This document shows, piece after piece, positions 31,491-36,453 of a stretch of DNA of 64,000 bases. A program made the translations under genes and the position numbers. The notes beneath the pieces were generated by a model. It saw only the letters and a program-made list of their open reading frames with translations. It ran no database searches and was not told the DNA's origin. The stretch lies in IMG/VR virus record IMGVR_UViG_3300022723_000262, positions 1,541 to 65,540 of that record; one strand, 5' to 3'. Source of the stretch: a virus (lineage: Duplodnaviria; Caudoviricetes). How positions within the stretch are numbered: position 1 is the first letter of the stretch; each line of letters opens with the position of its first letter.

Positions 31491-31840
31491 TGTACCTAGC
31501 CAGCCCGTACACGCATCCCGACCCGGCCGTTCGTGCCGCCCGCTTTCGAGCGACGTGCCAGGTGGCCGCGAAGCTGATCCGAGAAGGCTGCGTCGTCTTC
31601 GCGCCGATCGCGCACAGCCACCCGATGACCGAGTTCGGTTTGCCAGCCGATTGGCAATTCTGGGAACGATACGACATCGAGTTTCTGCGTCGGTGCAATG
31701 AACTGGTCGTGCTCAAGCTGGACGGGTGGCGGGAGAGTCGCGGCGTGCAGGCCGAGATCGATTTGGCGTTGGAGATGGATTTGCCGATCCGTTACTTGGA
31801 TGCGACGTGGGCAATCGAATCAACGGAGGCAACCGCGTGA
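31487..31840 (+). CDS. DUF1937 / nucleoside deoxyribosyltransferase-like protein
   Basis: YLASPYTH, FAPIAHSH, GWRESRGVQAEI. Confidence 0.82.
   Translation: MMYLASPYTHPDPAVRAARFRATCQVAAKLIREGCVVFAPIAHSHPMTEFGLPADWQFWERYDIEFLRRCNELVVLKLDGWRESRGVQAEIDLALEMDLPIRYLDATWAIESTEATA

Positions 31841-36453: not shown

Follow-up and report, generated by a model that had tools for sequence, protein, structure and literature searches.

What keeps a reading frame of 1538 codons open on the strand opposite eight other genes? The question is raised by a 64-kb stretch (hereafter the window; G+C 62%) out of the 65.5-kb viral record IMGVR_UViG_3300022723_000262, a phage related to prophages that reside in Pirellulales and in other Planctomycetota. 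Between 19.4 and 55.7 kb almost every gene of the window points forward, in a 36-kb run that extends from a sigma-like gene through the tail genes, and the main break in this run lies at 31849-36243, where eight genes (g1 to g8, hereafter the cassette) occupy the minus strand. Opposite them the plus strand carries the long frame, referred to here as the bridge frame. A selected frame whose translation, rather than product, matters is well supported by the evidence below; the best reading of it, to which we give an even chance, is a translated, product-irrelevant bridge that would hold ribosomes behind RNA polymerase across the reversed cassette.

The open frame and its register in the window

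The plus frame is free of stops from 31702 to the TGA at 36451-36453 (1583 codons, with an earlier in-frame GTG at 31726), the longest stop-free stretch when both strands of the window are counted, and the 1538 codons delimited by the original prediction, from GTG 31837 to that TGA, are uninterrupted. As had been proposed, the left ends of the eight minus-strand open reading frames (ORFs; Table 1) are each 1 mod 3; the plus frame too starts at 1 mod 3 and is consequently in -0 register with all eight genes. The other two plus frames contain 33 and 37 stops inside the same genes. The predicted spacers of 12, 207, 3, 72, 96, 27 and 279 nt hold with the later ATGs of g5 (34404) and g6 (34764), whereas the first possible starts give 48 and 21 nt in place of 96 and 27. 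All seven intergenic spacers are spanned by the plus frame.

Three chance figures, to be read as rough probabilities for independent oddities, can be drawn from the window alone: the probability that eight genes share one register is (1/3)^7 = 4.6e-4, equal to the previously quoted value of about 1/2200; the 1243 cassette codons contain no TTA, CTA or TCA (7.8 expected) versus 61 in 9660 codons (0.63%) of the other phage genes (P ~3.9e-4); and the spacers contain no in-register stop in 284 codons versus 7 among 554 codons of the two remaining frames (P ~0.03). The three codons are the reverse complements of the stop codons. Mixed frames, reported earlier for the minus-strand operon at the left of the window, were seen among the minus-strand genes at 1-19 kb.

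Conservation of the open frame among relatives

A locus set gathered via the amidoligase (g8) comprised 74 viral and 80 genomic relatives, with a common layout of methylase gene, reversed cassette, small gene and terminase; the 82 dereplicated loci form an unselected set, and figures drawn from them are the fair ones. The expectation that the cassette would remain in one register opposite an open frame despite differing gene content was borne out, since one codon-aligned open frame covers at least 75% of the cassette in 42 of the 50 viral loci spanning it in full, and the longest such frame reaches 2515 codons (L055). Across the 82 dereplicated loci, neighbouring genes lie in the same frame in 422 of 549 cassette pairs (77%) versus 47 of 204 flanking pairs (23%), and the median density of stops is 3.2 per 1000 codons in register versus 26.2 in the other frames. 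In the gene calling, every candidate was weighed against each of its alternative frames, and neither the three codons nor the stops were allowed to count.

The codon test put forward by the original prediction gave an equally clear outcome. TTA, CTA and TCA together number 9 in 37,389 cassette codons (0.24 per 1000) versus 15.9 per 1000 in 68,887 flanking codons, a depletion of ~66-fold that is confined to the reading frame of the cassette genes; singly they occur at 0.03, 0.03 and 0.19 per 1000, versus 2.7, 8.1 and 5.1 in the terminase and methylase genes of the flanks. The same trinucleotides are normal out of phase (32.5 vs 37.4 and 24.0 vs 28.9 per 1000), other NNA codons show no depletion, and GTA, ATA, ACA and GGA are enriched in cassette genes. 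As 28 other reversed genes in these loci carry the three codons at 14.8 per 1000, the depletion is specific to the cassette. A separate feature of cassette codon usage, counted over all loci, is that T-ending codons are 2-5 times rarer than in flanking genes, with CAT, TAT and CGT at 0.18 of their flank frequency.

The uncalled internal spacers behave as the genes do: over 57,780 nt from the 40 strictest dereplicated loci, which were picked for their low overall stop number, there are 0 in-register stops versus 506 and 644 in the other frames. At most two in-register stops are present in 25 of 62 gene-order strings, a number that understates diversity because single-linkage clustering merged 438 cassette proteins into one family; the cassettes in these strings measure 1.8-7.2 kb, and cassettes of 6.9 and 7.7 kb have four in-register stops; overall the trait persists in cassettes from 3 to 7.7 kb in size. 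In a tree of 77 distinct terminases, the strict form of the trait fills one large deep clade that includes the relatives of the window, and it is intermediate or absent in the remaining clades. Outside the strict clade, runs of neighbouring genes are still co-framed and without the three codons, and two to four long frames cover the plus strand.

On these sequence comparisons, the relatives confirm that the open frame is under selection and remove the doubt that the window alone would leave. The loss of stops is specific to one frame, a pattern that only a process aware of frame can give; we infer plus-strand translation to be that process.

The product of the frame

In the amidoligase region, the antisense translation differs at 42% of positions versus 20% for the amidoligase itself, over 1081 strict-locus pairs that are pairwise counts and not independent events. 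The proportion of sense-synonymous differences that are also antisense-synonymous is 6.1% in the amidoligase and 5.6% in the terminase, a control without an open antisense frame. Neither comparison (0.42 vs 0.20; 6.1% vs 5.6%) reveals purifying selection on an antisense protein. Codon usage of the giant frame scores -175 log-odds versus an 'antisense of a gene' model, its content varies with each cassette architecture, searches of the giant frame with Pfam and PHROG gave zero family matches, and no relative of its product was found among public proteins of 866-2757 aa. Predicted translations thus show the openness of the frame to be kept and its amino-acid sequence to be unconstrained, a result that disfavours the real protein offered as an alternative by the original prediction.

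Junctions with the flanking operons

In the window, the frame is coupled at both ends in the manner first described, with a GTGA overlap behind a GGAGG at the 5' junction (Table 1) and an ATGA at 36450-36453, where the bridge stop overlaps the ATG of the 69-aa packaging gene. Both are -4 overlaps, and the same type occurs at six other junctions of the forward operon. Among 86 distinct long frames in the relatives, 45 have their stop at -1, -4, -8 or -11 with respect to the start of the small packaging gene, and many of those overlapping its ATG use ATGAGTGA, which closes both alternative frames; two of 31 short frames overlap the packaging ATG. At the other end, the first start codon of the frame lies, in most strict loci, between about -35 and +26 nt from where the upstream gene stops. 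A greedy tiling of the plus strand with small ORFs was used for the first and last junctions only, being non-discriminating in mixed-frame loci, where GTG and TTG starts are frequent.

The gap between the convergent transcription units is ~10 nt in all locus groups, without a difference between strict and non-strict loci, and therefore leaves no room for a terminator. Rho is present in the hosts, with Rho_RNA_bind above cut-off in 4/4 host genomes. A sigma-70 consensus scan of 28-40 kb returned 0 sites, planctomycete and phage-sigma promoters being outside the reach of that scan.

Proposed role of the bridge frame and evidence against it

We infer plus-strand transcription, its translation and an anti-termination purpose from the features above, in the following arrangement. 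Eight autonomous accessory genes face backwards in the forward run as an 'ambigrammatic' block with their own promoter-like repeats, one-way terminators and hammerhead ribozyme, and the transcript of the replication/modification operon would continue through this block into the packaging genes, needing ribosome cover on the way. Ribosomes would load at the GGAGG-led GTG, where it overlaps the DUF1937 stop, translate 1538 codons without meaning and finish on the ATG of the small packaging gene; RNA polymerase would thereby keep its coupling to ribosomes, which would shield it from Rho and help it past head-on traffic, and the ribosomes would be handed to the late genes at the end of the bridge. 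Because synonymous changes can clear no antisense frame other than the codon-aligned one, the cassette genes would be bound to one register, kept without TTA, CTA and TCA, and gained or lost in multiples of three.

Several observations weigh against this reading. A second reversed gene of the same phage, at 39118-39984 (-) between terminase and portal, is unbridged, with 2-3 in-register stops; it encodes 288 aa with an HEWGH (HExxH-like) motif and gave no matches in Pfam or PHROG. This gene was seen only in the window and L002, at 67.5% identity versus 89-97% for its neighbours, with 51, 52 and 114 differences at codon positions 1, 2 and 3, and is a real gene. More than 10 in-register stops per 1000 codons occur in 21 of the 82 dereplicated relatives with the same architecture, so that the arrangement evidently works without a bridge, and whole sister clades of this architecture carry many stops. 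The g1 homologue, which is the last gene of the cassette, is out of register in L002 and L003, the nearest relatives, where 235-265 nt stay uncovered. Of the 86 long frames, 16 fall short of the packaging gene by 0-100 nt and 24 by 101-260 nt; the first start codon mostly lacks a Shine-Dalgarno-like sequence in the relatives, and the packaging gene has a good Shine-Dalgarno sequence of its own. Divergence at four-fold sites is lower in the amidoligase than in the terminase in strict and non-strict loci alike. A check for RNA runs containing this stretch listed none.

The 'ribosome bridge' of the original prediction consequently stands in part: selection, coupling at both ends in the window, 3' coupling in 45/86 long frames and Rho in 4/4 hosts agree with it, but the 40/86 frames that stop short, L002 and L003, the sister clades and the gene at 39118-39984 speak against its strict form.

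Alternative explanations

Two rivals of the bridge are live, and three others are not. Among the latter, a functional protein of 1500-2500 residues encoded by a true antisense overlapping gene would suit a frame that is open, conserved as a frame and, in the window, provided with a Shine-Dalgarno-led start; we nonetheless consider it improbable, as its rate of divergence is twice that of the sense proteins and exactly that of the unconstrained antisense of the terminase, its content shifts with every architecture, no family or homologue was found in the searches described above, and its codon usage is of the antisense type. Still less credit is due to a cause on the sense side, whereby cassette genes would shun TTA, CTA and TCA for the sake of their own translation (the cognate tRNAs being scarce or attacked in infection) and the open frame would be a by-product. 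Such a cause fits the absence of exactly three sense codons and the stronger C-over-T third-position preference of cassette genes, but cannot give the shared register of neighbouring genes or the freedom from stops of spacers, promoter-like repeats, terminators and ribozyme, and other rare A-ending codons are enriched rather than depleted. Chance, or an ordinary shadow ORF arising from G+C-rich third positions, is refuted: in-register antisense frames are described as long in G+C-rich genomes such as the window would represent (PMC3454372), but the flanks have 15.9 in-register antisense stops per 1000 codons, equivalent to a mean open run of ~60 codons, whereas the bridge frame spans seven spacers and the trait is kept over dozens of diverged loci. 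Two further candidates were rejected. Fission of one giant sense polyprotein gene as the source of the common register leaves the 66-fold depletion and the clear spacers unexplained, and the sense frame of the cassette has ordinary stops, every gene having its own start. An altered genetic code or suppressor tRNA was set aside in view of the ordinary stop at the end of each gene and a search for tRNA genes in the window that found none.

Of the live rivals, the shielding of RNA by ribosomes appears unlikely, if less so than any other alternative. Under this explanation the forward RNA would be translated for protection from RNases or against pairing with cassette mRNAs (double-stranded RNA, RNase III), and whether transcription arrives at the packaging genes would be immaterial. 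Shielding accounts equally well for the open frame, the frame-specific codon depletion and the unconstrained product, tolerates the 40/86 frames that stop ahead of the packaging gene, and has a narnavirus precedent in PMC8316113, according to which persistence needs an intact reverse ORF and translation itself is suggested to matter. It leaves unexplained the precise coincidence, in half of the long frames, of their end with the following start codon, the start of the frame at the stop of the previous gene, and the reason why the gene at 39118-39984 and reversed genes elsewhere go unprotected. We rate slightly lower again a mutual-exclusion switch, in which ribosome-coupled forward transcription would silence the cassette promoters by interference in the lytic programme and cassette transcription would oppose it in the other state. 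Convergent transcription units only ~10 nt apart, a cassette with its own promoter-like repeats and one-way terminators, and a phage sigma-like gene at the head of the forward operon all suit a switch; interference, however, needs no exact junction with the packaging gene, and sister clades carry the same cassette without a continuous frame.

Genes and expression signals of the cassette

Homologues of all eight minus-strand genes are present in relatives, and the eight are real genes (Table 1). The 20-nt promoter-like repeat occurs just twice in the window, each time on the minus strand. Among the terminator-like hairpins, the strongest (6-8 pairs, of which 5-8 G-C) lie in the spacers on the minus strand, and plus-strand matches within the cassette are weaker, with 3-4 G-C pairs. 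From its promoter-like repeats, terminator-like sites and ribozyme, the cassette appears to be organised for its own minus-strand expression.

Table 1. Coordinates of the bridge frame, its flanking genes, the cassette genes and their predicted signals (window positions, except where a related locus is named).
Feature	Position	Strand	Evidence and remarks
DUF1937 / nucleoside 2-deoxyribosyltransferase-like gene, 117 aa	31487..31840	+	Pfam/PHROG family matches; closes replication/modification operon
5' junction GTGA, GTG 31837 overlapping TGA stop of DUF1937 gene	31825..31840	+	GGAGG at 31825-31829, 7 nt upstream of GTG
Bridge frame, 1538 codons	31837..36453 (GTG 31837 to TGA 36451-36453)	+	Codon-aligned with all eight minus-strand genes
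g1, 306 aa, C-terminal DUF4314	31849..32769	-	Pfam 1.2e-10; homologues in most relatives
g2, 76 aa, weak DpnD/PcfM-like match under family cut-off	32782..33012	-	Pfam; homologues in relatives
Terminator-like hairpin and T-run after g3	33178..33196	-	Consensus scan only
g3, 176 aa, no named function	33220..33750	-	phrog_2227 2e-5; homologues in L002, L003
g4, 67 aa	33754..33957	-	Homologues in many relatives
Terminator-like hairpin (8 G-C pairs) and T-run after g5	33991..34010	-	Consensus scan only
g5, Lys/Ala-rich, HARE-HTH domain	34030..34452	-	Pfam 9.4e-10; true start probably ATG 34404
Type II hammerhead ribozyme, between g6 and g5	34437..34500	-	RF02276, 51.7 bits (gathering score 37)
g6, 87-89 aa, acidic	34501..34770	-	Homologues in relatives; later ATG at 34764
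g7, 75 aa	34792..35019	-	Homologues in relatives
Promoter-like or 5'-leader repeat GTCGGAATTCCTGGCTCATGTGT, copy 1	35067..35089	-	Upstream of g7
Terminator-like hairpin after g8	35247..35262	-	Consensus scan only
g8, amidoligase (Amidoligase_2)	35299..36243	-	Pfam 7.6e-14; phrog_2443 4.7e-26; likely start ATG 36171 (MNANAIFW...)
Promoter-like or 5'-leader repeat, copy 2	36238..36260	-	Upstream of g8 amidoligase
First packaging-side gene, 69 aa, small-terminase position	36450..36659	+	Without family match; homologues beside the terminase gene in almost every relative
Large terminase, lambda gpA type	36649..38919	+	Pfam GpA_nuclease 5.7e-25
Ribozyme in L002	9744-9807
Ribozyme in L004	10541-10608
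Ribozyme in L010	10007-10071
Ribozyme in L014	11777-11844
Ribozyme in L055	13532-13599
Ribozyme in L085	12541-12608
Ribozyme in L107	14720-14796
Ribozyme in L128	14468-14535

The hammerhead match is full length (model positions 1-66 of 66), with the cores CGAAAC and CUGAUGA present, and its complement is read through by the bridge frame. One copy was found in each of the 8/8 relatives scanned, loci without a single giant frame included. Because the ribozyme occupies 34437-34500, the start of g5 is more likely the ATG at 34404, and the match implies that the cassette mRNA would cleave itself. Type II hammerheads between genes of prophage transcripts are described for many bacterial prophages in PMC3088659, whose Dataset S1 may already contain this one; the placement between genes is the same as reported there, whereas here the opposite strand of the cassette is kept translatable.

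Genomic surroundings

The first part of the forward run encodes a sigma-70-like protein, a PD-(D/E)XK nuclease, a RecD-like helicase, an NrS-1-type primase-polymerase, a ParB-methylase and the DUF1937 protein, and the second part the 69-aa gene, the lambda gpA-type terminase, a lambda-type portal, capsid and tail genes. The small sigma-70 region-2 protein at the head of the operon (19451-20044, +) may allow the phage to direct transcription from promoters of its own, for which the GGAA(C/T)-containing repeat before g7 and g8 is a possible candidate. Immediately 3' of the terminase lies a small four-cysteine zinc-ribbon ORF (38916-39110, +) that is kept in 31 loci. The left arm (1146-18802, -), with a type I restriction-modification methylase, an HsdR-like helicase, two more large helicases, DUF5131 and a large serine recombinase, is a defence island beside the integrase.

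Towards the right end, an 894-aa ORF (55675-58359, +) is nearly all Ser/Pro-rich low-complexity sequence without a family match; upstream of it stands a 624-aa gene with a similar internal tract, and the minus-strand ORFs that face it look spurious. The possibility of another bridge, at 55.6-58.4 kb, was considered and rejected, the 901-codon plus frame there being this Ser/Pro-rich forward ORF, which is not codon-aligned with the weak minus-strand ORFs. Comparison of the window with the phage record collection gave a sole match, of 62 nt, to two Erythrobacter phages.

Implications

If the bridge is true, the narnavirus ambigram would gain its first counterpart in a DNA virus and its first in prokaryotes, on a larger scale of as much as 7.5 kb and eleven genes, regulatory elements among them, and selection would prove able to act on a reading frame solely for being translated. 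The bridge would also add a third route into late genes, beside antiterminator proteins and separate late promoters, and set a grammar for the evolution of cargo, composed of a ban on three codons, a single register, and gene gain or loss in multiples of three, by which the in-frame exchange of accessory genes at a hot spot would be explained. The wider proposition, that reversed cassettes in long phage operons can become ambigrammatic, with a meaningless open frame of thousands of codons kept purely for ribosome escort of RNA polymerase across hostile, head-on and otherwise untranslated DNA, is a tentative one that we place somewhat short of even chances. The combination of a frame-specific lack of TTA, CTA and TCA with a locked register could serve as a signature, readable from sequence, of a strand that is transcribed through a reversed module, and the loci offer a testable system for the weight of transcription-translation coupling beyond model bacteria. 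For annotation there is a warning, in that a giant open frame may conceal a real block of genes, and vice versa.

Comparison with known systems

Literature searches returned no paper on a stop-free antisense frame over several phage genes, and among the listed papers that mention both ambigrammatic coding and bacteriophages, none has a DNA phage as its subject, judging by title and abstract. In the lambda nin region, said to have been treated by Kroger & Hobom 1982 and by Cheng, Court & Friedman 1995, genes reportedly overlap in the ATGA manner and escape from Rho polarity depends on translation; in the icd-ant genes of P1 immI, translation of the upstream frame is likewise said to be needed for transcription to reach the downstream genes. 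These systems resemble the present one in that overlapping junctions keep ribosomes on the phage mRNA, but their frames are ordinary genes of the operon strand, whereas the bridge frame is antisense to real genes and its product is not conserved.

Long open frames antisense to annotated genes of a G+C-rich genome are represented by olg1 and olg2 of Pseudomonas aeruginosa, which, as described in PMC8850804, measure 957 and 1536 nt, lie each inside one gene and reportedly experience purifying selection at the protein level; the frames considered here are longer (4.6-7.5 kb), cover several genes and have an unconstrained product. With the shadow ORFs of G+C-rich genomes described in PMC3454372 the bridge frame has the codon-aligned antisense register in common, but its stops are ~66-fold under the background of the same phages and it crosses non-coding spacers.

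The closest known parallel is the ambigrammatic narnaviruses, in which, by the account of PMC6884476, replacing UUA, CUA and UCA with synonymous codons can free no reverse frame of stops except the aligned one. As in the narnaviruses described in PMC6884476, PMC8316113 and PMC8155312, the reverse frame is codon-aligned and stop-free through avoidance of exactly these codons, the trait occurs in some clades and is absent from sister clades, and the reverse product is poorly conserved, the act of translation being thought to matter. With a DNA genome and lambda-type terminase and portal, the prophage falls outside Narnaviridae and is ambigram-like in its working only. The narnaviruses are, in these descriptions, 3-kb RNA genomes that infect eukaryotes and carry one gene (RdRp), and the coupling of transcription to translation proposed as the benefit of the prophage frame does not apply to them. 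In contrast, the frame described here belongs to a DNA prophage of bacteria, overlies eight genes together with promoter-like repeats, terminators and a ribozyme, extends to 7.5 kb in relatives and is spliced into a long operon by overlapping stop and start codons.

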